Below, piece after piece: positions 1 through 20,988 of a DNA stretch of 64,000 nt. Both the position numbers and the translations under genes were made by a program. The notes under the pieces are model-generated. The model did no database searches. It saw nothing but the letters and a program-made list of their open reading frames with translations, and had not been told where the DNA came from. Origin of the DNA: an uncultured Pseudomonadales bacterium (GTDB lineage Bacteria; Patescibacteriota; Microgenomatia; UBA1400; CAYXSR01); NCBI GenBank assembly GCA_964430265.1, contig CAYSEI010000003.1, forward strand, positions 1,070 to 65,069, read 5' to 3'. The stretch's first letter is position 1; each line of letters starts with the position of its first letter.

Positions 1-159
1 GGCCGGGTTTAAATCTTTATTTACAACAATAACACTGTCCACATAAAGAAATATTTTCACTTGGTGTTTTTTGGCAATCGCCGCCTTGCTTAAATAATAT
101 AGTGTATCAATATCCTGATAAGTATAAGGCGGTTTGGTAACCATTAATCCTAACTTCAT
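1..159 (-). CDS. DsrE/DsrF/TusD-like sulfur-relay protein. Only the N-terminal 53 codons are present; the gene continues beyond the window start.
   Basis: Reverse-strand ATG at 159..157. Translation MKLGLMVTKPPYTYQDIDTLYYLSKAAIAKKHQVKIFLYVDSVIVVNKDLNPA is in frame to position 1. The pattern resembles the TusD/DsrE N-terminus, and the gene lies next to YeeE and TusA. Confidence 0.5.
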   Translation of the reverse strand, partial: MKLGLMVTKPPYTYQDIDTLYYLSKAAIAKKHQVKIFLYVDSVIVVNKDLNPA

Positions 160-165
160 AGTATA

Positions 166-1197
166 TTAAATTTCATTATTTCTAATAAATAAAAAGTAAG
201 CCATTGTCCAGTTGCCCAGAATTATAAAAATCCCAGCAACAAGACTAGAAACAGCTAGTTGAGGAACACCGCTTAAGATGTGTCCGATATTACAACCATT
301 AGCAATAACCGCACCCAATCCCATTAAAATTCCACCAAATAAAGATTGAACGGCAACTCTGGGTTTTGGATAACGAAACTTAAATTCTCCAGCAATTAAT
401 GAGCCAAAAAAAGCGCCCATTAACAAACCAATTACTTCAAATGATTCCCAAGTCAAAAAATTTTCTCCGTTTAAGATTGATTTTAGAATCGTTTCAAATC
501 CCATAGTAATGCCAAGCGGGTAATTCCTGCCCGAAAGCGCAGAAAAAACAAATGCTAAAATCCCGATCAATCCGATAACAAGTCCAGCTATTTGCCATTT
601 CCAGCCTTTCTTAAAGATAATTTTTATCAAGTTGCTGTGCTTATCTTTTTTATCAGAATTCTTTGTTTTGTTCCTTTTTTTTCCAAACAATAACCAAAAA
701 ATTATAAAGGAAAAAAAGCCGACCCAAATTATTTTCGGTACTCCGGTTATAGAATCTAAAGTTAATGGACCTAAATTAAAGTTTTGAATACCAGCAGTCA
801 ATCCCGATAAAATTCCGTCCTTAGCCAGAAAGGCAGCACCAACAAACCCGAATAAAGCCCACCAAGAACCTATCATTCCTTCCCCGACTCGATAAGCAGT
901 ACCGCTAGCACAACCCCCGGCTATTACCATCCCAAGACCGAAAATATAAGCGCCCAAGGGGACAGCAATCCAATAGAACGACTTTGGATTATATTCTATT
1001 AATCCAAAAGTGTTTAAAAGATAGAACCCAATCAATTCAACCGCAACAGCCAGACCAACAGCTTTAAGCAATGTAAAATCTTTAAACACAAGCGGATCGC
1101 GGAATGCAGAGTTCATACAAAATCGCCCTCGCTGCAAAGCAAATCCGAAAAGAATCCCCACAATTAATCCAGTAATTATAGTCAAAATATCTAACAT
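166..1197 (-). CDS. YeeE/YedE family inner-membrane sulfur (thiosulfate) transporter, TsuA-like
   Basis: 343 aa, multi-TM, with two internal repeats that each carry a conserved Cys motif (GGCASG and NGCNIG). A TusA-like gene lies directly upstream. Confidence 0.75.
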   Translation of the reverse strand: MLDILTIITGLIVGILFGFALQRGRFCMNSAFRDPLVFKDFTLLKAVGLAVAVELIGFYLLNTFGLIEYNPKSFYWIAVPLGAYIFGLGMVIAGGCASGTAYRVGEGMIGSWWALFGFVGAAFLAKDGILSGLTAGIQNFNLGPLTLDSITGVPKIIWVGFFSFIIFWLLFGKKRNKTKNSDKKDKHSNLIKIIFKKGWKWQIAGLVIGLIGILAFVFSALSGRNYPLGITMGFETILKSILNGENFLTWESFEVIGLLMGAFFGSLIAGEFKFRYPKPRVAVQSLFGGILMGLGAVIANGCNIGHILSGVPQLAVSSLVAGIFIILGNWTMAYFLFIRNNEI

Positions 1198-1201
1198 CTT
1201 T

Positions 1202-1459
1202 TTAACTTTTAACTTGAATTATTATACGATGATCCGGACCATCCTTTATCTTTTCCACTTTAAGCACTTTGTGCCCTTCTTTTTCTGAGTTACGAGGAAT
1301 CCTTTCTAAGGATAAGGGATAATCTGTTAAGACTTCTAACACCTCTTCAGGATTCATTTCCTTTAATTTTTTCCTGGTTTTAATATCCGGATATGGACAA
1401 ATCTCACCCCGGACATCAATACTTGCTGTTATTTTAACATCCTTATTTTCCTCTAACAT
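1202..1459 (-). CDS. tusA: TusA-like sulfurtransferase
   Basis: 85 aa with the CPxP active-site motif (GEICPYPDIK). Typical partner of YeeE. Confidence 0.75.
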   Translation of the reverse strand: MLEENKDVKITASIDVRGEICPYPDIKTRKKLKEMNPEEVLEVLTDYPLSLERIPRNSEKEGHKVLKVEKIKDGPDHRIIIQVKS

Positions 1460-1507: not shown

Positions 1508-2035
1508 TTACAATTTCGATACTGGATTGATACAGCCGTGTTCAAGACAATTTTCAATCTTAATTTCCATGTCCGCTTTCATACTTTCATTAAAACCAAC
1601 TATCGGATTTAAATCGCCAATAAATGTAGTCGGCACTCCTTGAGCTTGAATACCGTATGCCTCAGCCATTTCCTGAAATAACTGGACATTATCCTTATTC
1701 TTCCAGGTTTCATACATTTTTACTTCTAGATCCGAATATTTTTGTTCCATCTCTTCCAAGAAGGGTTTTTGGACTTCACAATGCGGACAACCGTCTCCCC
1801 AGAAAAAATAAACAACTGTTTTGCCTGAGCCATCAACTTCATCCTCAGTTGACTCAGATTTACCAAGAGTATCTGAGTCAGATTGATCAACTTTTTTTTC
1901 AGTTAACTTAACTGTAGATTGATTCGGATTATCTTGCTGGTGTTTTTCACCAGAAAAAAATAATAAACCAACTCCTAAAATTAGCAAAACTACCAAACCG
2001 GAATATATTACTTTTTTATTCATTTCACTTACCAC
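1508..2035 (-). CDS. Secreted, membrane-anchored thioredoxin-fold protein (CPHC)
   Basis: N-terminal hydrophobic anchor, then FFWGDGCPHCEVQKPF. Paralogous to the N-terminal domain of the ORF at 2428..4131. Confidence 0.7.
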   Translation of the reverse strand: MVSEMNKKVIYSGLVVLLILGVGLLFFSGEKHQQDNPNQSTVKLTEKKVDQSDSDTLGKSESTEDEVDGSGKTVVYFFWGDGCPHCEVQKPFLEEMEQKYSDLEVKMYETWKNKDNVQLFQEMAEAYGIQAQGVPTTFIGDLNPIVGFNESMKADMEIKIENCLEHGCINPVSKL

Positions 2036-2435
2036 CTTTTTGCATGCCTTGGCTGATCCATTCTTCAGCCTGGCTTGAATCTAATAATTCTTCAGTTTCC
2101 TCCGGTTTTTCCAGCTTTACTGTTGCAATCCAGCCTTTTTCATAAGGATCTTTATTAATCACTGTCGGATTATCAAACAGCTCCTCATGCACCTCAATAA
2201 CTTCTCCGGAAACAGGACTGGATAAATGCCCGCTCCACTTCAATGCCTCTAAAGTAACATAAGTATCACCCCTGCTTAACTTTTGTCCTTTTTTTGGCAG
2301 CTTAATAAACACAAATTCTTTCACTTTATCAGCCGCCGGCTTAATTACTCCCAAAGTGGCGGTTTCACCTTCAACTCTTACCCAGCAATAATCTTTGTTA
2401 TAAAGCAAATCATCTGGCAAGTTGTTTTCAGCCAT
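2025..2435 (-). CDS. gcvH: Glycine-cleavage H-protein-like lipoyl-carrier protein (orphan GcvH/LbpA-like)
   Basis: 136 aa. The lipoyl-lysine region LEALKWSGHLSSPVSGEV matches the GcvH ESVKAAS...PVSGEV core. No gcvT or gcvP is present in the window. Confidence 0.7.
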   Translation of the reverse strand: MAENNLPDDLLYNKDYCWVRVEGETATLGVIKPAADKVKEFVFIKLPKKGQKLSRGDTYVTLEALKWSGHLSSPVSGEVIEVHEELFDNPTVINKDPYEKGWIATVKLEKPEETEELLDSSQAEEWISQGMQKGGK

Positions 2436-4131
2436 TGTTTTCTCCTTCCTTTTTATCTTTTAAATTATCTTGATCCTTCTCATCTTCTTTTGTACCAATT
2501 TCTATACCGTATTTTGGCAGCACTTTGGTAAAAATAAAGTTTATAATTAATGCCGCAGCAATTGCTCCGCCAAAAACATAAAACATCCCGGAAATTCTAT
2601 TCATCAACTCCGGTTTTACTAACCAAACCCCGGATAAGGTCAGCATAATTATGCCTCCAATTAATTTAAGCATCCGCCCTTGAGTCTCTTCAAACTTACT
2701 TGCTTTAAGCGTAAACACAACCCCGGCAAAAACAACAAACTCATCAATAAAATATATCAACATATATAGGCCAAATAACAACGCGAAAAGGCTTTTTGAT
2801 ACACCTTGTTCAGCAAGTATGCTCGTCCAGATAACCGGGAAGCCAGCCGTACAAATCAACTCAACAAAAGTCACTCCAAAAGCCATAACTATTGTTGCCA
2901 GAATCATCGCAATGATTGATTCCTTTTTCATAATGCCCCTGATGTTTTTAAATATTTGCGGTTTAAATCTGTCAGGAATAGTAAAAGAAATACCCTTTTT
3001 ATACCAAAAATAATCCTTAATATTTACTGCTCCAAAAATAAAGGCAACTGTAGCTACTGCCAATTTAATCCAGTTCATATAACCGATTACCGTAAAGGTG
3101 TTAAAAAGTCCGAGGATAAACAAAGCATATACTAGCGTAGCAATACTAATAAAAGTAAGTCCGACCGCAAAGGTTTTTTTCCTGGAACCGGAATGAACAA
3201 CAATCCCCAATAGAAAAGTAATCACCCACAAAGAACAGGGGTTAAAACCGTCAACAAAGGCAACCAGCAAAGTCATGGCAAAAAGCGGCATATTAGAAAC
3301 ATTGACCTGACCGATTAAAGGAATATTAATTTTATACTCTTCCTCCGCAGTAACATCCCCGCTTTTAGGCAGAGACGGCGTGTAACCCTGTATATTTTTT
3401 GCCGGGCAAACACAATTTTCTTCCTGGCAAAGAACAATTTCACTTTCTAAATGGTCTCTTATTGCTGACTCACCGATAAAATAGCGTTCGCCAATAAAAA
3501 CAATCGGATAAGCACCACCGCCCACACCGTAGTTTTCCTTAAAATCCTCGTATAAACCCGCTTGCTTTTCAACATCATGACGATTGATATTAATATTGTA
3601 TTCTTTTTCTAAATTGCTTAAAAAGCCTTCAATATTTTGGCACTGGTTACAATCTTCCCGGTAAAAAAAGTGCAAACAAACGCTTTCTGCCTGTTCAGCA
3701 TTTTTTTTGTCACTAATACCTCCTGCTTTCTCACCCGGATCAATACAACCGTCTTCCAAACAACTAACAATTTTTTCTTCAATATCATCAGCCATGTTAT
3801 CAGAATAACCAACAATCGGAGCATAATTACCAATAAAAGTTGTTGGCACCCCACGGGCTTGAATGTCATAAGCAGCCGCTATTTTTTGAAATAATTTTTG
3901 ATTTTCCTGGTTATTCCAGGTTTCAAAGCTTTTTACCTCTAGCTCGGGATATTTATCCTCCATTTTTTCAAGAAAAGGTTTTTCCTCGGCACAATGCGGA
4001 CAGCCTTCACCCCAGAAAAAATAGACTGTAGTCGGCTCAGCCGCCCTAGCCACATTAGCTTTTAATACATTTAACCCTAGTATTAAAAAAATTAGACTGA
4101 CAATAAACAAAATTATTTTCTTTATATTCAT
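2428..4131 (-). CDS. Fusion protein: two N-terminal thioredoxin/glutaredoxin-like domains plus a C-terminal DsbD/CcdA transmembrane electron-transfer domain
   Basis: N-terminal anchor. Trx domain 1 carries CPHC. Domain 2 carries CNQC (FFYREDCNQCQNIEGF). The C-terminal multi-TM region carries the DsbD-beta/CcdA-type Cys (FVDGFNPCSLWV) and further TM helices. Confidence 0.75.
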   Translation of the reverse strand: MNIKKIILFIVSLIFLILGLNVLKANVARAAEPTTVYFFWGEGCPHCAEEKPFLEKMEDKYPELEVKSFETWNNQENQKLFQKIAAAYDIQARGVPTTFIGNYAPIVGYSDNMADDIEEKIVSCLEDGCIDPGEKAGGISDKKNAEQAESVCLHFFYREDCNQCQNIEGFLSNLEKEYNININRHDVEKQAGLYEDFKENYGVGGGAYPIVFIGERYFIGESAIRDHLESEIVLCQEENCVCPAKNIQGYTPSLPKSGDVTAEEEYKINIPLIGQVNVSNMPLFAMTLLVAFVDGFNPCSLWVITFLLGIVVHSGSRKKTFAVGLTFISIATLVYALFILGLFNTFTVIGYMNWIKLAVATVAFIFGAVNIKDYFWYKKGISFTIPDRFKPQIFKNIRGIMKKESIIAMILATIVMAFGVTFVELICTAGFPVIWTSILAEQGVSKSLFALLFGLYMLIYFIDEFVVFAGVVFTLKASKFEETQGRMLKLIGGIIMLTLSGVWLVKPELMNRISGMFYVFGGAIAAALIINFIFTKVLPKYGIEIGTKEDEKDQDNLKDKKEGENNG

Positions 4132-4793
4132 TTTATATACTTTCCTTTCATACCTTCTTTTAATAACAAAGCCAACCCTTCTGCATTTTTGTCACACTTA
4201 TCCGGACAATATATAGTCGGTCTTCTTGATAATTTAACTCTTTCACCATTATTCTCAAAAACATGAACAATACTTGCCTTGGTATAGTCGGTATTTTCCC
4301 AAGAAGTAATTACTATCCCTTTATCCAAATACTGATAAACATTATTAACCTGCTCAACATTTTCTATTGCAAAAGCATTTTTAACCGTTTCAATATCTAA
4401 ATCAGTAAAAATAGTGTAATCTTTTAATTGACCGCGGTAAACAATGCTTTCTTTATTGCTTAAAAAAGAATATCCGTCTTCTATTAAAATATACTCCATT
4501 TGCTGTTCAGTCGGTTTTAGTGTTCTCCCGGCCAAAATCATGTCTACTTTTTTGTTTTCTAAAAGAGCTAAACTCTCAGCAGTAGAACCAGTTTTAATAA
4601 TTTCATATTTTTCAGCATCAATTGTTTTAACCATTTCAAAACACGTCGGACAAGCAGCAATCTTTAATTTTTCCTTTTTCACAAACTGGCTGCTGTTAAC
4701 CTGCCCCGGCTTTTTTCCTTTTACAAAACTTAAACCTATTCCAGCAAAAACAGCTATTAAAACAGAGATAACAACTAATTTTTTGTTTATCAT
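4128..4793 (-). CDS. Hypothetical secreted or anchored protein with CxxC and CxxxC pairs
   Basis: 221 aa, N-terminal TM or signal sequence, CPTC near the N-terminus and CPDKC near the C-terminus. No family recognised. Embedded in the redox operon. Confidence 0.3.
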   Translation of the reverse strand: MINKKLVVISVLIAVFAGIGLSFVKGKKPGQVNSSQFVKKEKLKIAACPTCFEMVKTIDAEKYEIIKTGSTAESLALLENKKVDMILAGRTLKPTEQQMEYILIEDGYSFLSNKESIVYRGQLKDYTIFTDLDIETVKNAFAIENVEQVNNVYQYLDKGIVITSWENTDYTKASIVHVFENNGERVKLSRRPTIYCPDKCDKNAEGLALLLKEGMKGKYIK

Positions 4794-4800
4794 TTATATT

Positions 4801-5511
4801 TTAAAAAACCAACCTTAATAAAAACTGAGAATAATAAACACCTGTTACTAGAAAAATTATGGCGACTATTTTCCTGCTTACTTTTTCAATCTTCTGAACA
4901 ACAGCAAATGCCTGCCCTACCTTCTGCATAGAAAAAGCAATTATAAAAGAAAAAATTATTACCGGTAAACCTGTACCTAAAGCAAATATTGGAGGCAGCA
5001 AAAGTGCTTCTGTTGATTTAAGCACCATTGGGATAAGAACACCAAAAAACAATACACCGCTGTAAGGGCAAAATGCCAAAGCAAAAAGACTGCCTAATAA
5101 AAACGAACCCAAATAACCTTTAGTAGACAGTTTGCTTTTTAAATGCTCAATTTTTTTATTTTTAGTTTTTAAATTTAGTTTAATAACATCAAGCATAATT
5201 AAACCCAGAATAATTAAAACCGGCCCCAAAACCTTCTCCCCCCAGCCTTGAAATATTTTGGCTATTTGAAAGGAAGACAAACCAAAATATATTAAAGTTG
5301 CCAGAAGCGTATAGCTTAAACCCCTTCCCAAAGTATAAAAAACTCCGTTTAACAAAGTCTGCTTGGTTGATTTTAACTCTTTGGAAATATATGCAATTGC
5401 CGTAATATTGGTTGCCAAAGGACAAGGGCTGATTGAGGTAAGCACTCCTGTTAAAAAAGCAGTCAAAAGCGGAATGTTATAAGTATCAATCAAGTAGTTA
5501 ATAAACTGCAT
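4801..5511 (-). CDS. ccdA: CcdA-like cytochrome-c-biogenesis / DsbD-family thiol-disulfide transporter (transmembrane electron transfer)
   Basis: 236 aa, about 6 TM, with conserved Cys in TM1 (SISPCPLA) and TM4 (AFCPYSG). Confidence 0.7.
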   Translation of the reverse strand: MQFINYLIDTYNIPLLTAFLTGVLTSISPCPLATNITAIAYISKELKSTKQTLLNGVFYTLGRGLSYTLLATLIYFGLSSFQIAKIFQGWGEKVLGPVLIILGLIMLDVIKLNLKTKNKKIEHLKSKLSTKGYLGSFLLGSLFALAFCPYSGVLFFGVLIPMVLKSTEALLLPPIFALGTGLPVIIFSFIIAFSMQKVGQAFAVVQKIEKVSRKIVAIIFLVTGVYYSQFLLRLVF

Positions 5512-5512
5512 T

Positions 5513-6016
5513 TTATTTTCCCAATAGACTTCTTAATCTTGCTTCAAAATAATCAATAAATTGAGCTTCATTATTAACCAACCGCCACACTTTAACATCT
5601 TCACTAATATTATCTTGACCGTTCCTTATTGCATTAATAAATAAAGAGGATCCCCGGGCACGATATTTAGCAACTATTTCCTGATTCTCTTTTAACTCCC
5701 CATTGATATCTTTATAGATAATCTTGCCTGAAGCATATTCTTCCGGAAATTCTTCCTTAATGGTTTTTAACGCATATTCACCAACAGTTATACACGACCA
5801 GCATTGGTTTGTACCGTGAAAATGCACAATGACTATCTTATCCGCGGGCTGAGGCGTCGGGCTTGGAGAAACATGAGACGCTTTTTTACTTGAATTGCCT
5901 TCCCCTAGCACTTGATTATTACTTTGTGTTGTTCTATTACGGTATATTCCAAATCCAATTATTGCAATTACTACCACGGTAATAATTAAAGTTATTTTTT
6001 TATCCATATTCTCCAA
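5513..6016 (-). CDS. Membrane-anchored CxxC (CWSC) protein, possibly thioredoxin-fold
   Basis: N-terminal TM, Pro-rich linker, then VHFHGTNQCWSCITVGEY. Family not recognised. Confidence 0.35.
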   Translation of the reverse strand: MENMDKKITLIITVVVIAIIGFGIYRNRTTQSNNQVLGEGNSSKKASHVSPSPTPQPADKIVIVHFHGTNQCWSCITVGEYALKTIKEEFPEEYASGKIIYKDINGELKENQEIVAKYRARGSSLFINAIRNGQDNISEDVKVWRLVNNEAQFIDYFEARLRSLLGK

Positions 6017-6017
6017 A

Positions 6018-7175
6018 TTAAATTATTAACCCATACATAAATCCGGCAAGGGTTGTTAAAACCGTAATCGAAACTGCATAAACAAATGTCTTTTTTGTGC
6101 CAATAAGCTTACTGATTACCAAAAGCCCCTGAAGAGATAAAACCGGATCAGATAATAAATAAGCCATTAATGGTCCTTTATGCATACCCAATTCCATAAA
6201 ATTCTCTGCAATCGGTACTTCTACTAAAGCAGGAAAATAAGCAATTGCGCCAAACAAAACAGCAACAAAATTAGTTAAAATATTATTATTACTAGCTAAA
6301 GCCTGAAACTGTTTTTCAGGAATTATTTCAGTCAATGCTGAAGCAAAAAATACCCCGATTAAAAGCAAAGGAATAATTTGGGTAACAAATTTTATTGTTT
6401 CATTCCACCAAGCTTGTCTTCTTGAAGAGGAAAGCCAGCCAAAGGTCATTATTACCTGGATTAGAATCAAAGGCAGAACTAATCCATACCTTAAACCACT
6501 ACTAATCGGGGCAGTGCCGACTATTAAGATTGCTATCAATGTGCCCCAAAAAAAGCCTGTTTTCTTGCCTTGCAAGCGGTCCAAATCCTCTTTAATTATT
6601 TGTGTCTCTCCGTCTTCATGTCCATTGCCAAAAACAACCTCCATAATTATTCCGGTTAAAACTGCAAATGCTACTGAAAAAATAAACCGGATCAAGCTAA
6701 AACCCCAACCCAATCTCTGCCCGGTCAGAACTAAAGTAACAAGATTAAACGCCGGCCCGGCATAAAGAAGAGTAACCGCAACTCCCAAACCAGCACCCTT
6801 TTTCCAAATACCGGCAAAAAGGGGTAGAATCGTGCAAGAGCAAACTTGAACAAGAAAACCACTAGTAACAGCAATTACGTAAGCTAAGCCTTTTTTTGTT
6901 TTGCCGGATAAATATTTTAAAACCTGGCTGGAATCAACTAAACTATTAATTGCTCCAGCAATAAAGAAAGCCGGGATTAAACAAAAAAGAACATGTGCGG
7001 AAAGATAATCAACCAGCCCAAGCCAGCCTTGATAAACTGCCTGGCCAATTAACTCCTGAACTGTTTCTTGGGCAAGAAAACCGCCAATCTGATCCTGCCA
7101 CAGATAAATAATCAAATAGGCACCAGACAATAAGCCAATAACCCAGTTTTTTTTAATAATTTTAAATATTTTCAT
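6018..7175 (-). CDS. DUF318/ArsP-like permease
   Basis: 385 aa multi-TM with an intramembrane CSC motif (VQVCSCTILP). Genomic association with Thioredoxin_3 and ArsR genes. Confidence 0.6.
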   Translation of the reverse strand: MKIFKIIKKNWVIGLLSGAYLIIYLWQDQIGGFLAQETVQELIGQAVYQGWLGLVDYLSAHVLFCLIPAFFIAGAINSLVDSSQVLKYLSGKTKKGLAYVIAVTSGFLVQVCSCTILPLFAGIWKKGAGLGVAVTLLYAGPAFNLVTLVLTGQRLGWGFSLIRFIFSVAFAVLTGIIMEVVFGNGHEDGETQIIKEDLDRLQGKKTGFFWGTLIAILIVGTAPISSGLRYGLVLPLILIQVIMTFGWLSSSRRQAWWNETIKFVTQIIPLLLIGVFFASALTEIIPEKQFQALASNNNILTNFVAVLFGAIAYFPALVEVPIAENFMELGMHKGPLMAYLLSDPVLSLQGLLVISKLIGTKKTFVYAVSITVLTTLAGFMYGLII

Positions 7176-7178
7176 AAT

Positions 7179-7430
7179 TTATTCTTCGTTCTCAGTAATC
7201 AACTTTTTAATTTTTTCAACATCATTAACTAGACCAGTTAAAACCGGCTCATCATCAATAGTTAAAACCGGGCTGGACATTACACCCAATTCCATAATTT
7301 TCTGAATGCCTTCCTGACCGGAAACATATTCAACCTTCTGGTCTATTTGTATTTCTTCAACCGCTTTTTTTGTTAGCTCAAACAGCTTTTTACAAGTAGG
7401 GCATCCCGAACCTAAGATTTGGATTTTCAT
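7179..7430 (-). CDS. Thioredoxin_3 family small redox-active disulfide protein (redox-active disulfide protein 2)
   Basis: 83 aa, MKIQILGSGCPTCKKL with CxxC near the N-terminus. Typical partner of the DUF318 permease. Confidence 0.7.
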   Translation of the reverse strand: MKIQILGSGCPTCKKLFELTKKAVEEIQIDQKVEYVSGQEGIQKIMELGVMSSPVLTIDDEPVLTGLVNDVEKIKKLITENEE

Positions 7431-7750
7431 TTTTCCTCCTTTAATAAATTAAAAATTAAATCACTAACTTGTTTTCCCTTTGGGGTTAGAAAATAATATT
7501 TGCGTCTTCCTTCACGACGGCTGTCAACCAATTTTTCTTGCTTCAAGTCACTTAAATGATGGGAGGTTAAACTCTGGCTCATGTCAAAATAATCTTTCAT
7601 TTCACAGACACAGCATTCCCCCTGCCTTAAAACACAAATTAATTTTAGCCTGCTTTTCTCACTTAAGAGTTTTAATAAAGCAGAGATATCTTCAATTTTC
7701 TCTGCTTCTTTTTTTTCTGGTTGGCAACATTTATATGAACGCACATTCAT
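7427..7750 (-). CDS. ArsR/SmtB-family metalloregulatory transcriptional repressor
   Basis: 107 aa. Metal/metalloid-binding Cys cluster (ECCVCEM) precedes a helix-turn-helix region. First gene of the minus-strand operon. Confidence 0.7.
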   Translation of the reverse strand: MNVRSYKCCQPEKKEAEKIEDISALLKLLSEKSRLKLICVLRQGECCVCEMKDYFDMSQSLTSHHLSDLKQEKLVDSRREGRRKYYFLTPKGKQVSDLIFNLLKEEK

Positions 7751-8432: not shown

Positions 8433-8951
8433 ATGAAAATTATAGATAAAGTAACTACTAAAACAGATGTTTTTTCCCGGACAAATACATACTTAATCGG
8501 ATTGCTTGTACTTTTAATTGTTCCGCCTTTCTTTATAAACAACCAATTCATTACTGGACCCTTAGTAAATGCAATTCTTTTAAGCTCAGCTGTAATTGGC
8601 AGTAATTCTGTGGGAACAATATATGGTATGCTACCCAGTACGATTGCTTTAACCAGCGGGTTACTGCCGCTTCCTTTAGCACCAATGATCCCCTTTATAA
8701 TGTTGGCTAATGCAATTTATGTTCTGACTTTTAAAAGTTTATATAACAAAAATCTCTTTATGGGAATATTTGCTGGCTCTTTGGCAAAATTTATATTTTT
8801 AAATGCTTGTGTTTCTTTTATTTTACCCAATTTATTAAAAGTACAGTTTTTAAGTAAAATAGCAGTAATGATGAGCTGGCCCCAGCTGGTAACAGCAATT
8901 GTTGGCGGTGTTATTGCTTTAGGTATTATTGAAAAATTCCAGCAAAATTAA
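8433..8951 (+). CDS. Hypothetical polytopic membrane protein (about 5 TM), possibly a transporter substrate-capture component
   Basis: The ORF at 8322 overlaps the upstream gene, and the internal ATG at 8433 (MKIIDKV) is the more likely start. Hydrophobic throughout. Confidence 0.35.
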   Translation: MKIIDKVTTKTDVFSRTNTYLIGLLVLLIVPPFFINNQFITGPLVNAILLSSAVIGSNSVGTIYGMLPSTIALTSGLLPLPLAPMIPFIMLANAIYVLTFKSLYNKNLFMGIFAGSLAKFIFLNACVSFILPNLLKVQFLSKIAVMMSWPQLVTAIVGGVIALGIIEKFQQN

Positions 8952-8986
8952 CCAGTATTATATATTTTTTGCTTTTTTAAATTATT

Positions 8987-9997
8987 ATGGACAAAGATTT
9001 ATTATTGGAAAAAATTAAGCAAGCAGGAATTGTCGGACGCGGCGGCGGTGGTTTTCCCTCTCATTTAAAGTGGAAAAGAATTTTAGATCATCAAGCAGAT
9101 AAAAAAGTGCTTGTTTGTAATGCTTCCGAAGGTGAACCCGGTGTTTTTAAAGATTTTTACATCTTAAAAAATTACCCGGAAAAGGTATTTAAAGGCATAC
9201 GTATAGCTTTGGACTTTTTAGATTCTAAAGATGCATATATTAATTTTAATAAAGCCTATTACCATCAATTAAGGGATAAAATTGATCCTTTAGTACAGAA
9301 TTACAAGGATAAAGGTTGTGACATTCGTATTTTTATTGAAGAGCCCAGCTACATCGGAGGGGAAACCGGAGCACTTTTAAATGCAATTGAAGGAAAAAGA
9401 ACTGAGCCACGACTCAAACCGCCCTCTCCTTCTTTAGCAGGAATTCGTGGAAATCCTTGTTTAGTCCATAATGTTGAAACACTTTATGATGTCTGCTTGG
9501 TTGTTGATGGAAAATTTAAGGAAAAAAGATATTACAGTATCTCTGGTGAGGTTAGAAACTCTGGTGTTTATCATTTAAACAGGGATTTAAACATGGAAGA
9601 AGTTTTGAAAAAAACAAATAACTGGCCGGACATGGATTTTTTTGTACAGGCTGGCGGAGGAGCAAGCGGCCCTTGCTTTAATAAAGAACAGTTAAAAAAA
9701 GAAAAAACTCCGGGAAGCGGATCTATTGAGGTGTATCCAGCTGATACACATCCTAGAGAAATGTTTAAAAAATGGTTTACTTTTTATAAAAAGGAAAGCT
9801 GTGGCAAATGCGGGCCCTGTAGACAGGGAACTTATCAATTGTATAAAATGATTAACCAACGTGAACAAATCCCTTGGAAAGATATGGGAGAAATAATTGA
9901 AGCAATGGAAAAAACAGCTTTTTGTGCTTTGGGAACTTCCATTGCTATTCCCTATAAAAGCTATTTAACTAATGTATTAAAAAAGTGTGTATTATAA
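8987..9997 (+). CDS. NuoF-like NAD(P)H-binding FMN / 4Fe-4S flavoprotein (hydrogenase diaphorase HydB-like subunit)
   Basis: GRGGGGFPSHLKW and CNASEGEPGVFKD (NADH and FMN sites of the 51-kDa family). The C-terminus carries ESCGKCGPCRQG plus a distal Cys, matching the N3-type 4Fe-4S site. The stop overlaps the hydA start. Confidence 0.8.
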   Translation: MDKDLLLEKIKQAGIVGRGGGGFPSHLKWKRILDHQADKKVLVCNASEGEPGVFKDFYILKNYPEKVFKGIRIALDFLDSKDAYINFNKAYYHQLRDKIDPLVQNYKDKGCDIRIFIEEPSYIGGETGALLNAIEGKRTEPRLKPPSPSLAGIRGNPCLVHNVETLYDVCLVVDGKFKEKRYYSISGEVRNSGVYHLNRDLNMEEVLKKTNNWPDMDFFVQAGGGASGPCFNKEQLKKEKTPGSGSIEVYPADTHPREMFKKWFTFYKKESCGKCGPCRQGTYQLYKMINQREQIPWKDMGEIIEAMEKTAFCALGTSIAIPYKSYLTNVLKKCVL

Positions 9998-11702
9998 CAT
10001 GAAGAAAAAAAACACAGTATATATTGACAATAAACCATATTTTTTTGAACAAGGTGACACTATTTTAGATGTTGCCAGAAAAAATGACATTGATATTCCC
10101 CACCTTTGTTATCATCCCGACTTGCCCAAAGTGGCAAACTGCAGAACCTGTCTGGTTGAAAACCTGAACAAGGAGGAAATAACCACATCCTGTACCCTAG
10201 TTTGCAAAGACGGCATGAAAGTTAACACTAAAAGTGAGGAAATAAACAGATTAAGAAAAACTAATCTGGAACTGGTTTTGGCACAGCATACACAAAATTG
10301 TAATTTGTGCCAGAGCGGACTGCAGTGTGATACTGCAGACTTAATGAAAAAATATGGAGTTACCGGATACAAATATAGCAAAGAAAAGGTAGATGCTAAA
10401 AAACCCAAAATCGGTTCCTTAATAGAAATTGATCCTAAATTGTGCATTGGCTGTAGAAAATGTACTGAGGCCTGCAAAAAACAAGGTATTGGATATTTAG
10501 AACTGGATAAAAGAGGTCAGGAAATACATGTTAAACCAACTGAAAACAAGCATATTGATTGTATCTTTTGCGGACAATGCACTTTAAAATGTCCTGTCAA
10601 TGCAATCCGAGAACAAAATCAGGTAGAAGACGTAGAAAGAAAATTAAATGCTCCTGATAAAATTGTTATTGCCCAGATGGCTCCTTCTGTAAGAACTAGC
10701 ATCGGTGAAGAGTTTGGATTTCCAATCGGTACCAATCTGAGCAAAAAAATGTATACGGCATTTAGAAAATTGGGCTTTGAAAAGGTTTTTGATGTAAATA
10801 TGGGTGCAGACATTACCACCATGGTAGAAGCAGAAGAACTAATTGAAAGGATTGAAGAAAACGAAGGTTTGCCAATGTTTACTTCTTGCTGTCCTTCCTG
10901 GGTAAAATTTATTGAATTTTATTACCCAGAATTTATCCCCAATTTAACTACCTGCCGTTCACCCCAAATTCATTCCGGTGCTGCATACAAAACCTGGTGG
11001 GCCCAAAAAAAAGGAATTGACCCCAAAAATATTGTAGTGGTTTCTATTATGCCTTGTACTTCCAAAAAATTTGAGGCACAATTGGAAAAACTGAAAGTCA
11101 ACGGCCATTATCCAGTTGACCATGTTTTGACTACCAGAGAAACCGCTGACCTATTAAAAAAACACAATATCGACCCGCATGATCTAAAAGATTCAGACGT
11201 TGACAAATACGGAGAATATACTGGTGCCGCAGCAATATACGGGGCTTCCGGCGGAGTAATGGAGTCAGCACTTAGAACTGCTGCTTATCAAATGACTGGA
11301 AAAGACTTGGAAAAACTGGAATTTGAACAGGTAAGAGGAACTAAAGGAATTAAAAAAACAACCGTCACTATTGATGGCAAGGAATTACGTTTAGCCGTAG
11401 TTTCTAATACAAAAAATGCCCGCATTATTTTACAAGAGATTAAAAAGAAACCAAAAGCTTACCACTATATTGAATTTATGACCTGTCCGGGCGGATGTTT
11501 GGGCGGCGGCGGCCAGCCGCTTTCTTCCACTGAAGAAACTGTCAAAGAAAGGATTAAGAGCTTGTATAAAATAGATACAGAATCAAAAATAAGAAAGGCA
11601 CACGAAAACCCGATTGTTAAAGAATTTTTTGATTACCTAGACACTTTGCCTGAAGAAAAAAGAAAACAAATTCTTTATACCAACTACCAGAAAAGAAGTT
11701 GA
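9987..11702 (+). CDS. hydA: [FeFe]-hydrogenase catalytic subunit (group A, M3-like). Domains are an N-terminal 2Fe-2S ferredoxin, 2x[4Fe-4S] and the H-cluster.
   Basis: H-cluster motifs are L1 FTSCCPSWV, L2 MPCTSKKFEA and L3 EFMTCPGGCLGGGGQP. Two CxxCxxCxxxCP ferredoxin motifs and an N-terminal Cys pattern CYHPDLPKVANCRTC are also present. Confidence 0.9.
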   Translation: MYYNMKKKNTVYIDNKPYFFEQGDTILDVARKNDIDIPHLCYHPDLPKVANCRTCLVENLNKEEITTSCTLVCKDGMKVNTKSEEINRLRKTNLELVLAQHTQNCNLCQSGLQCDTADLMKKYGVTGYKYSKEKVDAKKPKIGSLIEIDPKLCIGCRKCTEACKKQGIGYLELDKRGQEIHVKPTENKHIDCIFCGQCTLKCPVNAIREQNQVEDVERKLNAPDKIVIAQMAPSVRTSIGEEFGFPIGTNLSKKMYTAFRKLGFEKVFDVNMGADITTMVEAEELIERIEENEGLPMFTSCCPSWVKFIEFYYPEFIPNLTTCRSPQIHSGAAYKTWWAQKKGIDPKNIVVVSIMPCTSKKFEAQLEKLKVNGHYPVDHVLTTRETADLLKKHNIDPHDLKDSDVDKYGEYTGAAAIYGASGGVMESALRTAAYQMTGKDLEKLEFEQVRGTKGIKKTTVTIDGKELRLAVVSNTKNARIILQEIKKKPKAYHYIEFMTCPGGCLGGGGQPLSSTEETVKERIKSLYKIDTESKIRKAHENPIVKEFFDYLDTLPEEKRKQILYTNYQKRS

Positions 11703-12491: not shown

Positions 12492-13946
12492 TTACCTAAA
12501 ATCAAGCTGTTTGCTAAAGTAACGCTTAACAAAACGCAAATAATATTTAAAAACATCCCAATTGGTTAAAGCATATTGTATTTTCATCAGCATCCACTGG
12601 GGCGTAAAAACCAGACTGTAAAATTTACGGATGTATTCTTTTAATTCTTTGTTTTTTAAATCCGTTTTTACAATTGGCTGGCGCATGTCATATTTTCCCC
12701 AATCTTTTGTTTTTAGCCAGTTTTTTTCATTGGCTTCTTTAAAAAGAGGTGTTCCCGGATAAGGGATTACAATAGTAGTCTGCCAGCTGTCAATTAATTT
12801 TTTTTGTACTAGATCTTTAAAAAATTGGTAAGTGTTTTCAATATCTTTTTCTTCTTCCCAGGGATAGCCAATCATTACTGTTACATGCGGATTTAAGCCT
12901 GCTTTTTTTGCATTTTTTAAATTGGGTTCAATCTGTTCCACTTTTAAACCTTTGTTTATTTTATCCAGAGTTTTCTGGTTAGCTGATTCAAGTCCATAAA
13001 GTAAGAAGCGGAAGCCGGCTTTGCGCATCATTTGGTAGTCTTTTTTTGTTAGGTTGCTGTTAAAACGCATATTGCAATTTATCCTGACTTTTTTATTTAA
13101 TCCTTTTTTAATCATTTTTTCACAAAACTCATTTAGCCAGTTACCAACAGGAAAAGTTCCTGAATCATCCATGATTTCTTTTATTGAGTATTTTTTAACT
13201 AATTCCTCCACTTCTTTTATTGCCTTATCAACAGAAATAGTTCTGCACTGGGGGTATAAGTTTGCCGGCCAGCTGCAAAAAGTACACTTCCCCCACCAGC
13301 AGTCGCGTGAAAACATAGTATATGTACCCGGCAAGCTGCGGTAATTTGAGTTTTTATATGCATAAGTCTTCCAGTTTGTTAGCTCCCTGTCTATTAAAGG
13401 AAGATTGCTTAAATCTTTTTTAAGCTGGAATTTTCCTGTATTTAATATTTTTCTATTTTTCTTGTACCATATACCTGGTTTAAGCTTTTTTCCTTTTTCT
13501 ATATGCTTAACAACACTTAAAAGCAGATAATCATAGTCTCCTCCGGTGAGAATATAGTCGGCCTGTGAGTTATTCAAAGTTTCTTTTGGTCTAGCTGTTA
13601 CATGATCTCCTGCTAAAATAATTGTTAATTGCTTGTTTATTTTTTTTAATTTCTCAATTATTTGCCAGTGTTTTTTAATTACTGGTGTTTTTGTTTCTAA
13701 AAAAAGAATATCCGGATTAAAATCAAATAATTTGCTCTCCCATTTTTTGTATTGCATCTGCTTGTTTATTCCGTCCAACCATAAAATCTCGTATCCAGCA
13801 TTTTTAAGCATTGTAGCTGCATAAGCAGGAATTATCGGATAGGCTGTCCAAGGGGTTTTTGCCCATTGAAACTGCCTGTTTTGGGCAAGCAGGGCTGTTC
13901 CTTTTTTTGATTCTAATTGAGGATAGCCAATTGCTATTTTCATCAT
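12492..13946 (-). CDS. B12-binding-domain radical SAM protein (class B radical SAM family)
   Basis: The N-terminal cobalamin-binding-like domain begins MKIAIGYPQ. The radical SAM CxxxCxxC is CWWGKCTFC. The ORF could start at 13967, but that leaves only 18 bp to the divergent GT gene. Confidence 0.75.
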   Translation of the reverse strand: MMKIAIGYPQLESKKGTALLAQNRQFQWAKTPWTAYPIIPAYAATMLKNAGYEILWLDGINKQMQYKKWESKLFDFNPDILFLETKTPVIKKHWQIIEKLKKINKQLTIILAGDHVTARPKETLNNSQADYILTGGDYDYLLLSVVKHIEKGKKLKPGIWYKKNRKILNTGKFQLKKDLSNLPLIDRELTNWKTYAYKNSNYRSLPGTYTMFSRDCWWGKCTFCSWPANLYPQCRTISVDKAIKEVEELVKKYSIKEIMDDSGTFPVGNWLNEFCEKMIKKGLNKKVRINCNMRFNSNLTKKDYQMMRKAGFRFLLYGLESANQKTLDKINKGLKVEQIEPNLKNAKKAGLNPHVTVMIGYPWEEEKDIENTYQFFKDLVQKKLIDSWQTTIVIPYPGTPLFKEANEKNWLKTKDWGKYDMRQPIVKTDLKNKELKEYIRKFYSLVFTPQWMLMKIQYALTNWDVFKYYLRFVKRYFSKQLDFR

Positions 13947-13985
13947 TTTTAGTATACCATTAGCCAAATATTGTAAAATAGGGGT

Positions 13986-14972
13986 ATGAAATCTGTAAGT
14001 GTAATTTTAGCTACCTTAAACAGCGGTGATATTTTAGATAAGTGCTTGTCCTCTGTGCGCAGTCAAGAATATAACCAAGATAAAATTGAGATTATTGCTG
14101 CAGACGGCGGGTCCACTGACGCAACTTTGGACATCTTAAAAAAATACAAAGCGCAAATTATTCCGGAAAATACGGGGAATCCAGAAGCTGCAAAACTTCT
14201 GGCACTTAAAAAAGCAAAAAACGAAATTATTCTGCATATTGACGATGATACTGTCCTTCCCAACAACAAATGGCTGAAAAACATGCTTGATTGTTTTGCA
14301 AAAGAACCAGAAGCTGTTGCCTGCTACCCTTGGCGATATACGTATAGGAAAAAAGATAAATTTTTAAATAGGTATTTTGCACTTTTTGGAGTTAATGATC
14401 CTCTTGCATATTTTCTAAAAAAAGCAGACAGACAGGATTACCTGCCTCCCAAAGACAAGTACAAATTAAAAGGAAAAGCTACTGACAAGGGAAAATATTT
14501 TTTGGTCGAGTTTAATAAAAATAATCTGCCGACTGTAGGTGCAAACGGATTTTTAATTAAAAGAAAAATCTTAAACAAAGTTTTGCAAAATAAAAAACAC
14601 TTTTTTCATATTGATGCAAATTTAAAATTAGTTAAAAAGGTTTTTAACAAATACATTGTAGTTAAAAATAATGTTTTACATTTAAGCGGTGGTTCACTTT
14701 TAAAGTATCTTAAAAAAAGATCCCGCTATTTAAATATTGTTAACTTGGAGCAAAAACAAAACCGCATATATTATACTGCTGATGTTAACAAAGACTTTTT
14801 TATGCTTGTCTTGTTTGCTATCTATGCAAACACTTATATAGGTCCTCTTTTAGTCTCTTTTAAAGGCTTTTTATCTAAAAAAGACCCGGCTTGGTTTTTG
14901 CATCCGATTATTAATTTTTTGATTGCCTGGATATATTTTATTAACGTATTAAAATCATGGCTGAAAAAATAA
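13986..14972 (+). CDS. Glycosyltransferase family 2 (1 of 5 tandem paralogs)
   Basis: VSVILATLN...IIAADGGSTD. GT-A fold N-terminal signature. Confidence 0.75.
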   Translation: MKSVSVILATLNSGDILDKCLSSVRSQEYNQDKIEIIAADGGSTDATLDILKKYKAQIIPENTGNPEAAKLLALKKAKNEIILHIDDDTVLPNNKWLKNMLDCFAKEPEAVACYPWRYTYRKKDKFLNRYFALFGVNDPLAYFLKKADRQDYLPPKDKYKLKGKATDKGKYFLVEFNKNNLPTVGANGFLIKRKILNKVLQNKKHFFHIDANLKLVKKVFNKYIVVKNNVLHLSGGSLLKYLKKRSRYLNIVNLEQKQNRIYYTADVNKDFFMLVLFAIYANTYIGPLLVSFKGFLSKKDPAWFLHPIINFLIAWIYFINVLKSWLKK

Positions 14973-15925
14973 CACCGCAAATTTCTATTGTCATCTGTAC
15001 CTTTAACCGTGCTGAGAGTCTAAAAAATTGCTTACAATCATTGACCAAGCAAACTTTTTCTGATTTTGAAGTAATAATTGTTGACGGCGGATCGCAAGAC
15101 AAAACACCACAGATAATTGAAAATTACAAAAACAAATTAAATATAAAAGTAGTTATTAATAAATCGAAAAATATTGCTAAACTAAGAGACTGTGGATGGA
15201 GGCAAGCTGAAGGAAGATATATTTCCTGGATTGACGATGATGTGGTTGCCTCACCAAACTGGGCGGAAACTGTTTTTAATGTGCTTAAAAACAACAAAAA
15301 CATCACGGGTGTGACTGGTCCGACATTGATTCCCAAAGAAATTCTGCAAAATCGTGACGTATTCTTTTTTCATAATAAAAAAGACTTGCTTGCAAAGTTT
15401 TGGCAAAACTTTGTTTTAGAAGGAAAAGAAAAGGACCCAGGACAAATTTTAAAAAATGGATTTTGGACGCCGGGATCCAATTTTTCCGAATCCACAAAAC
15501 TAGAAAAATCTGTTGAGGTTGATTTTTTGGAGGCTTGTAACATGACTTTTAAAAAAAGTCTGGTGGAAAAAGTGAACGGTTTTAACCCGGATTTTTTTAA
15601 AGAATGGTCTGAGGCGGATCTGTCGCAAAGAATTAAAAAACTTGGATACAAGTTGCTTTTCCATCCCAAAGCAGTTGTTGAGCACCACATTTCCAAAAAA
15701 GGCGCTTTTCACGGACGGACAACAGCAAAAGAAAGAATGCAGGATTTTTTTAACTTTTATTTTAAACATGCCTATAAGTTTAAATATTTATGGAGGTTTT
15801 TAATTTTGGTGTTTATACAAAATCTTTACTATACATACAAAGCAATAAAAGACAAAAATATTTCTTGGCTGGGCAGCTGGTTGGGAACAATTAAAGGATT
15901 TAAATATATATGCAAAAAGAATTAA
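14957..15925 (+). CDS. Glycosyltransferase family 2 (2 of 5)
   Basis: ISIVICTFNRAESL, VIIVDGGSQD, WIDDDV (DxD). Confidence 0.75.
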   Translation: MAEKITPQISIVICTFNRAESLKNCLQSLTKQTFSDFEVIIVDGGSQDKTPQIIENYKNKLNIKVVINKSKNIAKLRDCGWRQAEGRYISWIDDDVVASPNWAETVFNVLKNNKNITGVTGPTLIPKEILQNRDVFFFHNKKDLLAKFWQNFVLEGKEKDPGQILKNGFWTPGSNFSESTKLEKSVEVDFLEACNMTFKKSLVEKVNGFNPDFFKEWSEADLSQRIKKLGYKLLFHPKAVVEHHISKKGAFHGRTTAKERMQDFFNFYFKHAYKFKYLWRFLILVFIQNLYYTYKAIKDKNISWLGSWLGTIKGFKYICKKN

Positions 15926-16929: not shown

Positions 16930-16930
16930 A

Positions 16931-20910: not shown

Positions 20911-20988
20911 AAATAACTAGAATTTCTTATTCTTAAAAATGATGATAAACTTAAAATTAAGTATAGCAAATTATTGTTTAATTAATTT

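Follow-up and report, generated by a model that had tools for sequence, protein, structure and literature searches.

In a 64,000-nucleotide stretch of contig CAYSEI010000003.1 (assembly GCA_964430265.1), hereafter called the window, a small gene of the GcvH family lies between two genes for thioredoxin-type proteins. Our best reading of this gene is that it encodes an H-protein look-alike working outside glycine cleavage, namely a non-glycine lipoyl dithiol carrier. We further propose, with a probability of about one half, that the lipoylated protein acts in the cytoplasm as dithiol/disulfide partner to a transmembrane thiol relay of the DsbD kind, whose membrane component would be the 567-aa thioredoxin protein encoded directly upstream. 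The proposal builds on the family of the GcvH-like protein, its lipoyl lysine, the separation of its clade, a conserved gene order, and the invariant cysteines and predicted topology of the membrane protein. The two central features are:

2025..2435, minus strand: GcvH-family lipoyl carrier of the 'KWSGH' clade; ATG start, 136 aa; Pfam GCV_H
2428..4131, minus strand: 567-aa protein with a signal anchor, two thioredoxin (Trx) domains (Trx1 with CPHC, Trx2 with CNQC), a CxxxxCxC linker and seven transmembrane (TM) helices; Pfam, alignments and an AlphaFold2 (AF2) model

The GcvH-like gene is coupled to its thioredoxin-type neighbours

Pfam GCV_H (PF01597) matches the GcvH-like protein along positions 1-120 of its 122 (E-value 5.5e-35), and Pfam Biotin_lipoyl does so with 1.8e-05. 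The protein passes the looser NCBIfam model of the GcvH subfamily (PRK01202, 122.8 bits at a cut-off of 117) and stays below that of the gcvH equivalog (TIGR00527, 106.2 bits at a cut-off of 115.85). The 13 PDB relatives are without exception H-proteins. In the alignment, K66 falls on the lipoyl lysine of the pea (1HPC) and E. coli (3AB9) proteins; this lysine is invariant in 125 aligned sequences. Hence, K66 is the predicted lipoyl lysine, from which we infer that the protein, which carries no signal peptide, is lipoylated.

Reading of the sequence places the ATG of the GcvH-like gene among the final codons of the 567-aa gene (AATGGCTGA), so that the two overlap by 8 nt, with a Shine-Dalgarno-like GGAGA 5' of the start. 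This confirms the first-pass annotation, an earlier reading of the same DNA, which had described an open reading frame (ORF) at 2025-2435 between thioredoxin genes with its start overlapping the end of the upstream gene. On the other side, the downstream thioredoxin gene has a possible ATG 1 nt past the GcvH stop and an alternative GTG start that overlaps the end of the GcvH-like gene by 11 nt. According to Pfam and the translations, both flanking genes encode thioredoxin-fold domains with a CPHC motif. Translational coupling of the GcvH-like gene to its thioredoxin-type neighbours is thus supported.

The GcvH-like proteins form a separate clade away from glycine cleavage genes

Homologues of the same clade (50-84% identity) were found in Patescibacteria and in DPANN archaea (Woese-, Pace-, Aenigm- and Nanoarchaeota, Nanobdellota), and no clade member that carries a name comes from any other group. 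The suspicion of the first-pass annotation that the DNA stems from an organism akin to Candidate Phyla Radiation (CPR) members is supported. In a distance-based neighbour-joining tree of clade and canonical GcvH sequences, the clade is a single bipartition with a bootstrap of 90/100; clustering with canonical GcvH, which the first-pass annotation had named, together with a complete gcvTHP system elsewhere in the genome, as what would refute its reading, was not seen. Identity amounts to 60% inside the clade and 39% between clade and canonical GcvH. The two groups differ in the lipoyl hairpin, which reads LEAxKWSGH in 57 of 57 clade sequences and (V/I)E(S/A)VK(A/T)VSD in the 68 canonical ones. 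The residues W, S, G and H at positions +1 to +4 past the lysine occur in only 0-1% of the canonical sequences. Since these changes cluster at the surface of the swinging arm, they suggest a switch of protein partners. One sequence outside the clade, found among the canonical loci L014-L086, has the hairpin VETGKWMGKL, with K-W as in the clade, and might be an intermediate form.

As controls we used 73 canonical gcvH loci obtained by a scan of genome contigs, which also listed at least 7 clade loci. The P-protein (GDC-P) is encoded within 5 kb of 58 of the 73 canonical genes (~79%) and the T-protein (GCV_T) near 46 of them (~63%), both confirmed with Pfam; when the flanking ORFs were clustered, P and T were the two most frequent neighbour families. 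In contrast, 148 GcvP and GcvT proteins from the canonical loci gave no tblastn match in 296 kb of sequence, made up of the window plus 17 related loci, and a Pfam scan of 50 window ORFs, including all larger ones, detected no GCV_T, GDC-P, E1/E2/E3 or Hdr-like family. The earlier observation that the window lacks glycine cleavage T and P genes therefore stands.

Clade loci share a membrane thioredoxin protein and lipoylation genes

We compared 15 independent clade loci, namely the window, L001, L002, L003, L006-L013, L089, L091/92 and L093/94. Upstream sequence is readable in all 15, and in 14 the gene immediately upstream of the clade gcvH encodes a 567-aa protein homologue, mostly with an overlap or at a distance of at most 30 nt. 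The exception is L013, where the locus begins 700 bp upstream of gcvH and positions 1-700 (minus strand), at the contig start, hold an IS200/IS605-type transposase-like ORF with an HVHMFV motif. As a proxy for linkage, 14 of the 17 best GcvH matches on contigs of at least 5 kb lie on contigs of the same size as that of a membrane-protein homologue, among the 120 matches listed. In L003, 1.2 kb (8767-10001) without a called gene separate the Trx-membrane gene from gcvH.

Downstream of gcvH, a lipoate ligase gene is present wherever the sequence suffices, and so is a lipoyl synthase gene, except in L091/92. As ligase, the related loci encode the large subunit of LplA, usually with the small C-terminal subunit next in line. 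Their synthase is LipA, which scores 356.4 bits against TIGR00510 (cut-off 310.25) and just 40.1 bits against LipS2, and which carries a CX4CX5C motif.

The genes between gcvH and these lipoylation genes differ. A thioredoxin and a flavoprotein of 415-449 aa follow in L002, L003, L010, L011 and L013 (variant A), and both together with DUF169 in L089 and L093 (variant A'), with DUF169 alone in L006. L091/92 combine an AhpD-like CMD protein bearing a CxxCxxxH motif with the flavoprotein (variant D). Thioredoxin, TusA, YeeE, DsrE, DsrF and DsrH characterize variant B, to which L007, L008, L009 and also the window belong. The TusA-YeeE-DsrEFH module is therefore found in 4 of 15 loci, and the flavoprotein holds its position in most loci. 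The first-pass annotation had envisaged a lipoyl dithiol carrier cooperating with TusA/DsrE and thioredoxins. The dithiol carrier persists as our best reading; the TusA/DsrE part proved too narrow, as the near-invariant partners are the Trx-membrane protein, LipA and LplA.

The flavoprotein adjoins the cassette in 8 loci. It possesses a single conserved cysteine in a YxxCxxPY motif in 8 of 8 loci, at position 42-45 in seven and at position 66 in the N-terminally extended ORF of L013. Its best NCBIfam models are CoA-disulfide reductase (CoADR; TIGR03385, 313.5 bits at a cut-off of 578.8) and H2O-forming NADH oxidase (Nox), and it scores below the cut-off of both. An assignment as Lpd was considered and ruled out by the single cysteine, the lack of a CxxxxC motif and the nature of these best models. 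The AhpD-like protein belongs to an archaeal lineage (L091 9409-9750, L092 8340-8681), comprises 113 aa and contains the motif CKYCIGFH; the order in L091 and L092 is clade GcvH, AhpD-like CMD protein, CoADR-like flavoprotein and LplA, with no LipA nearby.

The membrane partner resembles DsbD in the placement of its cysteines

Pfam thioredoxin and glutaredoxin matches of the 567-aa protein are confined to its N-terminal half. The first-pass annotation had called the gene Trx-Trx-DsbD, of which the Trx domains hold, whereas the DsbD label is without Pfam or NCBIfam backing and comes from motifs. In alignments of 11 and 55 homologues the family shows an N-terminal signal anchor, Trx1 (CPHC; missing in some members), Trx2 (CxxC) and seven TM helices. 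The C-x4-C-x-C linker is invariant, and so are, in 55 sequences, C299 in TM1 (DGFNPCS) and C427 in TM4 (ELxCTAGFP). In the AF2 model, which has a mean predicted local distance difference test (pLDDT) value of 82.4, the TM1 and TM4 helices are broken at these two cysteines. The charges of alternate loops (+3, +6 and +1, with the others near 0) fit a topology with the Trx domains outside and the C-terminus inside. A Foldseek search with the model returned thioredoxin matches only. The family has 2,234 matches at E <= 1e-10, some of which are labelled CcdA in JGI and NCBI records, and its membrane domain is without a Pfam model.

The DsbD, CcdA and ScsB transporters are known membrane electron transporters (PMC3322552). 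Like them, the 567-aa protein has cysteines in TM helices 1 and 4 and, as predicted, Trx-fold domains outside the membrane, which in that group are fused or provided by a partner. Unlike them, its membrane domain is missed by the DsbD_TM and DsbD_2 models and is predicted to have seven TM helices. Since membership finds no support in any curated model or profile comparison, we propose from these sequence features that the protein works like a DsbD/CcdA thiol-disulfide transporter, not that it is one. DsbD, CcdA and ScsB receive electrons from cytoplasmic thioredoxin, and a lipoyl-protein donor has not been reported for any of them.

Two distant homologues of the membrane protein, L087 8001-10037 (46% identity) and L095 8001-11734 (39%), lack a GcvH gene alongside. 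In L087, labelled Alphaproteobacteria, a rhodanese and a 286-aa thioredoxin protein are encoded 5' of the membrane homologue. In L095, an unlabelled ENA contig, ArsP_1 and a small cytoplasmic Thioredoxin_3 protein follow directly 3', where GcvH would be. Since Thioredoxin_3 takes the place of GcvH in L095, the idea of GcvH as a stand-in for a cytoplasmic thioredoxin fits. Electrostatic docking was also considered, the window GcvH having a net charge of -8 and the cytoplasmic TM3-4 loop +6. As the GcvH charge spans -12 to +7 across the clade, we did not use it as evidence.

The window operon combines thiol, sulfur and metalloid-type genes

The remaining genes around the GcvH-like gene in the window are the following:

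1..159, minus strand: DsrE/TusD-like gene, first 53 codons, running past the window edge; 47/53 residues identical to L007 9362-9706
166..1197, minus strand: YeeE/TsuA-type sulfur (thiosulfate) transporter; Pfam Sulf_transp E 6.8e-89; NCBIfam TsuA models 305.7 and 228.1 bits, both below cut-off
1202..1459, minus strand: TusA/YedF-type sulfur carrier with a CPYP motif; Pfam TusA E 2.4e-21; NCBIfam YedF 70.1 bits at a cut-off of 79
1508..2035, minus strand: membrane-anchored or secreted thioredoxin, CPHC, paralogue of Trx1; likely start ATG 2023; Pfam Thioredoxin_2 and Thioredoxin
4128..4793, minus strand: U220, a 221-aa membrane-anchored extracytoplasmic protein with Cys48-Pro49; AF2 and Foldseek
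4801..5511, minus strand: DsbD_2/ArsG-like membrane protein with two membrane cysteines; Pfam DsbD_2 E 3.3e-21; NCBIfam ArsG 298.9 bits at a cut-off of 200
5513..6016, minus strand: membrane-anchored ArsF-like protein, CWSC motif; NCBIfam ArsF subfamily 87.1 bits at a cut-off of 60; no Pfam family
6018..7175, minus strand: ArsP_1-family permease; Pfam ArsP_1 E 2.5e-63
7179..7430, minus strand: small cytoplasmic thioredoxin of the Thioredoxin_3/MTH895-ArsE family, CPTC; Pfam E 4.9e-20; TIGR00412 74.5 bits at a cut-off of 62
7427..7750, minus strand: ArsR/HTH_5 regulator with a C-V-C motif; homologues in L001 and L007 called HTH_5

From arsR (7750) to window position 1, twelve genes lie on the minus strand with gaps of at most 48 nt, and the sole good promoter-like site on that strand, TTGACA-17-TAATAT at 7779-7751, is situated just upstream of arsR. 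Because of the short gaps and this single site, the twelve genes are most simply read as one operon, with the ArsR/HTH_5 protein as its likely regulator. This operon includes TusA, the YeeE/TsuA-type transporter and the start of DsrE, and the earlier description of an H-protein homologue embedded in a sulfur/thiol operon was thus accurate. LipA and LplA are not encoded within the window. Since the DsrE start and the gene order match L007, in which the homologue at 9362-9706 is a Pfam DsrE protein (E 1.2e-22), the genes expected next beyond window position 1 are DsrF, DsrH, LipA, LplA and LplA-C.

The anchored thioredoxin at 1508..2035 is 65-69% identical to Trx1 of the 567-aa protein and to the L002 homologue. 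U220 has no match in Pfam or NCBIfam; its 92 homologues are all without a functional name ('hypothetical protein'), and those with a taxon come from metagenome-assembled genomes of the Patescibacteria group. Its AF2 model (pLDDT 90.6) shows a periplasmic-binding-protein type-2 fold, for which Foldseek returned the OxyR regulatory domain and PstS-like proteins (E 5e-10). Cys48-Pro49 in the first helix is invariant, and U220 is encoded upstream of the membrane protein in the window, L001, L002, L003, L007, L012 and L089. Judging from the model, U220 may be an extracellular ligand-binding or redox-sensing acceptor. The DsbD_2/ArsG-like protein is a possible second thiol-disulfide transporter of the operon.

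The CVC motif is invariant in seven regulators beside the cassette (window, L001, L002, L003, L006, L007 and L088), and in L006 an ArsR-type regulator gene is located directly upstream of the Trx-membrane gene. Genes for ArsP_1, Thioredoxin_3, ArsF-like and DsbD_2/ArsG-like proteins often accompany the cassette as well. The sulfur genes show a further feature: between bacterial and archaeal copies (window 1202-1459, L007 8086-8340, L008 11221-11463, L009 10845-11081) TusA is 75-84% and YeeE 61-69% identical, and the TusA CPYP motif is kept in 4 of 4 loci. Such identity across domains points to a recent transfer between CPR bacteria and DPANN archaea, with the TusA module probably moving together with the cassette.

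A proposed lipoyl-dependent thiol relay

We propose the following order of events. Bipartite LplA would attach octanoate or lipoate to K66 and LipA, like the ligase a cytoplasmic enzyme, would insert the sulfur atoms; both genes would be located just outside the window, past position 1. The lipoyl disulfide would then be reduced, for which the adjacent single-Cys CoADR/Nox-type NAD(P)H flavoprotein is the candidate in most related loci. Dihydrolipoyl-GcvH would in turn reduce the C299/C427 pair of the 7-TM domain from the cytoplasmic face, and the reducing equivalents would pass through the two outward Trx domains to the anchored thioredoxin (1508-2035) and possibly to U220. Candidate targets at the end of the relay are envelope or extracellular disulfides, sulfenates, persulfides or thiophilic metalloids. 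In the variant of the window, the TusA-YeeE-DsrEFH module may feed sulfur to LipA, or may draw on the dithiol to process imported thiosulfate or sulfane sulfur. GcvH would thereby play the role that thioredoxin has for DsbD and that lipoyl-DlaT has for AhpD in Mycobacterium tuberculosis. The midpoint potentials are -320 mV for NADH, -290 mV for lipoamide and about -230 to -250 mV for the DsbD domains. Because these published values run from NADH through lipoamide to DsbD, the reductive direction would be downhill.

Several results weigh against this proposal. Neither Pfam nor NCBIfam yields a match of DsbD_TM, DsbD_2 or CcdA to the membrane domain, even when the isolated domain is searched at E <= 1. 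An hhalign comparison with four DsbD_2/DsbD_TM sequences aligns the FNPC and SPC motifs, but with P = 0.17; a search for an internal repeat in the domain gave no signal, and sequence and Foldseek searches of the PDB gave no match for it. With the L002 flavoprotein as tblastn query, no counterpart was found in the window at E 1e-3; none was found in L007-L009 either, and obvious candidates for the terminal substrate, such as Msr or peroxiredoxin, were seen in none of the loci. The linkage of the cassette to CVC ArsR and ArsP-type genes opens other possible roles. What we propose on lipoylation, the redox partners, each electron-transfer step and its direction, and the final substrate comes from sequence and gene order.

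A wider version of the proposal is more tentative, and we regard it as possible yet somewhat doubtful. CPR bacteria and DPANN archaea may share, through inter-domain transfer, a self-contained 'lipoyl-redoxin' with its own LplA and LipA, recharged by the CoADR-like flavoprotein, in which GcvH replaces thioredoxin for a new transporter family. This system would be their sole use of lipoate and their main route of reductant to the cell surface.

Comparison with known systems and alternative explanations

With canonical GcvH (pea 1HPC, E. coli 3A7A/3AB9) the clade shares the fold, the length, the position of the lipoyl lysine in the hairpin, 35-45% identity and, as predicted for the clade, lipoylation by LplA/LipA-type enzymes. 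It differs in forming a clade of its own with K-W-S-G-H in place of the canonical K-A-V-S-D, and in its constant neighbours, which are the membrane thioredoxin protein, thioredoxin, LipA and LplA, with no gcvT or gcvP found nearby. Another known system to compare is the peroxidase chain of M. tuberculosis, in which, as reportedly found by Bryk and colleagues in 2002, electrons run from NADH through Lpd, the lipoyl group of DlaT and AhpD to AhpC. There, as proposed for the cassette, a protein-bound lipoyl group shuttles electrons from an NAD(P)H flavoprotein to a CxxC oxidoreductase, and in L091/L092 an AhpD-family protein is even encoded between GcvH and the flavoprotein. The cassette differs in having a free GcvH instead of an E2 domain and a CoADR/Nox-type flavoprotein instead of Lpd; its proposed acceptor is a membrane protein, and AhpC was not seen. 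In the full-text literature covered, which leaves most subscription journals outside, neither a link between GcvH and a DsbD-like protein nor a lipoate system in CPR or DPANN is described, and 'GcvH' and 'DsbD' appear together in no single paper.

Among the alternatives, the most plausible, albeit unlikely, is a sulfur carrier of the LbpA type, as the first-pass annotation had suggested, whose lipoyl arm would take over sulfane sulfur from TusA/DsrE in cytoplasmic sulfur oxidation or trafficking, with the thioredoxins as accessories. LbpA proteins are the lipoate-binding proteins of sHdr sulfur oxidation (Cao et al. 2018, PMC6067878; Tanabe et al. 2024, PMC11094781). Like the window clade, they are lipoyl proteins that resemble GcvH and serve outside glycine cleavage, with dedicated lipoylation genes and, for the window variant, TusA/DsrE-type neighbours. 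TusA, YeeE/TsuA and DsrE(FH) indeed follow directly after the GcvH-Trx pair in the window, L007, L008 and L009, and the high identity of TusA between bacterial and archaeal copies shows the module travelling with the cassette. This part of the earlier suggestion stood, whereas its sHdr part did not: no sHdr or Hdr-like gene was found among the scanned window ORFs or the called genes of the related loci, and the module is confined to the few variant B loci, a flavoprotein being encoded in its stead elsewhere. The two cysteines strictly conserved in LbpA, which lie close to the N- and the C-terminus, respectively (PMC6067878), are missing here; the alignment of the GcvH clade contains no conserved cysteine, and the single Cys17 of the window protein is replaced by serine in 91% of the clade. 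Moreover, LbpA is accompanied by LipS1/S2 and a single-domain ligase, as opposed to canonical LipA and two-part LplA in the related loci, and the constant partner of the clade is the membrane thioredoxin protein. Thus, three of the four LbpA features tested in the window clade (cysteines, sHdr context and LipS/ligase set) are lacking, and the TusA/DsrE neighbourhood is present. Also unlikely, and next in rank, is a function with thiophilic metalloids, in which the operon would be under As(III)-type ArsR control and dihydrolipoyl-GcvH and the thioredoxins would bind or reduce arsenite or organoarsenicals handled by the ArsP, ArsG and ArsF-like proteins. Tight binding of As(III) is a property of vicinal dithiols such as dihydrolipoate, the operon opens with an ArsR gene whose C-V-C motif is invariant in all seven cassette-side regulators, and ArsP_1, ArsG-like and ArsF-like genes are linked to it in the window, L001, L003, L007, L008 and L093. 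However, CVC regulators of the ArsR/SmtB type govern many non-arsenic operons, ArsC, ArsB/Acr3, ArsA, ArsD and ArsM were not seen, the names ArsE, ArsF and ArsG depend on single NCBIfam models, and L002, L010, L011, L089 and L091 have no ArsP-type gene beside the GcvH cassette.

The same proteins might run in the oxidative direction, which we judge improbable. In this case the outward Trx domains would oxidise secreted proteins in a DsbA-like manner and electrons would flow inward to oxidised lipoyl-GcvH and on through the flavoprotein to NAD+ or O2. To our knowledge, CPR and DPANN organisms lack the quinones that DsbB and VKOR require, oxidation of dihydrolipoyl groups is the usual direction of E3-type flavoproteins, and CoADR and H2O-forming NADH oxidase are the families nearest to the adjacent flavoprotein. 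Transfer from DsbA-type couples (about -120 mV) to lipoamide (-290 mV) would nevertheless be uphill, the DsbA-like CPHC of the Trx domains cannot by itself decide the direction, and the window encodes a separate DsbA-like protein (50573-51535). More improbable again is a relay or store of lipoyl groups, in which GcvH would receive octanoate or lipoate and pass it to E2 subunits elsewhere, comparable to GcvH of B. subtilis and GcvH-L of S. aureus. GcvH-L, known from the GcvH-L/LplA2/SirTM/macrodomain operon of S. aureus and streptococci (PMC4518038, PMC12440151), is likewise a GcvH paralogue not engaged in glycine cleavage, has a ligase of its own and a tie to redox stress, and can buffer and transfer lipoate under oxidative stress (PMC12440151); GcvH is encoded beside LplA and LipA in the related loci. 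Yet neither SirTM nor a macrodomain turned up in the window scans or the related loci, nor did a LipL/LipM-type second transferase or an E2 in any locus, the clade and its hosts are different ones, and the tight coupling to the membrane thioredoxin protein would be left unexplained. An ordinary H-protein with its T, P and L partners elsewhere in the genome, finally, is the least probable explanation by our estimate. It would agree with the strong GCV_H match and the passed PRK01202 cut-off, and some bacteria have gcvH unlinked from gcvT/gcvP: 15 of the 73 canonical loci have no P-protein within 5 kb. It is at odds with the separate clade, the four altered residues right past the lipoyl lysine, the score below the gcvH equivalog cut-off, the complete lack of T and P matches in the 296 kb of window and clade loci, and conserved neighbours that are thiol-redox genes. 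Compared with all of these, the thiol relay with lipoyl-GcvH as its cytoplasmic partner is the reading we prefer.

Other genes of the window

At 8987-11702 on the plus strand, some 1.2 kb away from where the redox operon begins with arsR, a gene for a NuoF-like FMN/4Fe-4S protein (336 aa) overlaps the start of that for a [FeFe]-hydrogenase large subunit (571 aa; Fe_hyd_lg_C, Fer2_4 and Fe_hyd_SSU). The pair could be an NAD(P)H-linked hydrogenase and serve as a source or sink of reductant. The DsbA-like protein at 50573-51535 (minus strand) has 320 aa, of which the C-terminal half matches DSBA-like and Thioredoxin_4 families and the N-terminal 170 residues match none; it may be part of a separate disulfide-forming pathway. 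A surface-glycan cluster at 12492-24321 encodes a B12-binding radical-SAM protein, eight family-2 glycosyltransferases, a sulfotransferase, a polysaccharide flippase-like protein and a TPR-PMT_2 protein, and is followed by type IV pilus genes at about 28-37 kb.

Significance

Apart from the known exceptions LbpA and GcvH-L, lipoate is seen as serving a small number of central-metabolism complexes as cofactor. Since CPR and DPANN organisms are mostly without such complexes, the conservation of a GcvH-LipA-LplA cassette in their tiny genomes needs explaining. If our proposal is true, the GcvH-like protein would be the first lipoyl protein known to feed a transmembrane thiol relay, and its partner would represent a new family of membrane electron transporters with about 2,200 homologues at E <= 1e-10. 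The whole cassette, which is small (4-6 genes), is possibly a new type of transmembrane reducing system. It would then give a handle on how episymbionts without a respiratory chain keep their surface proteins reduced, or cope with oxidants, sulfur species or metalloids where they meet their hosts.

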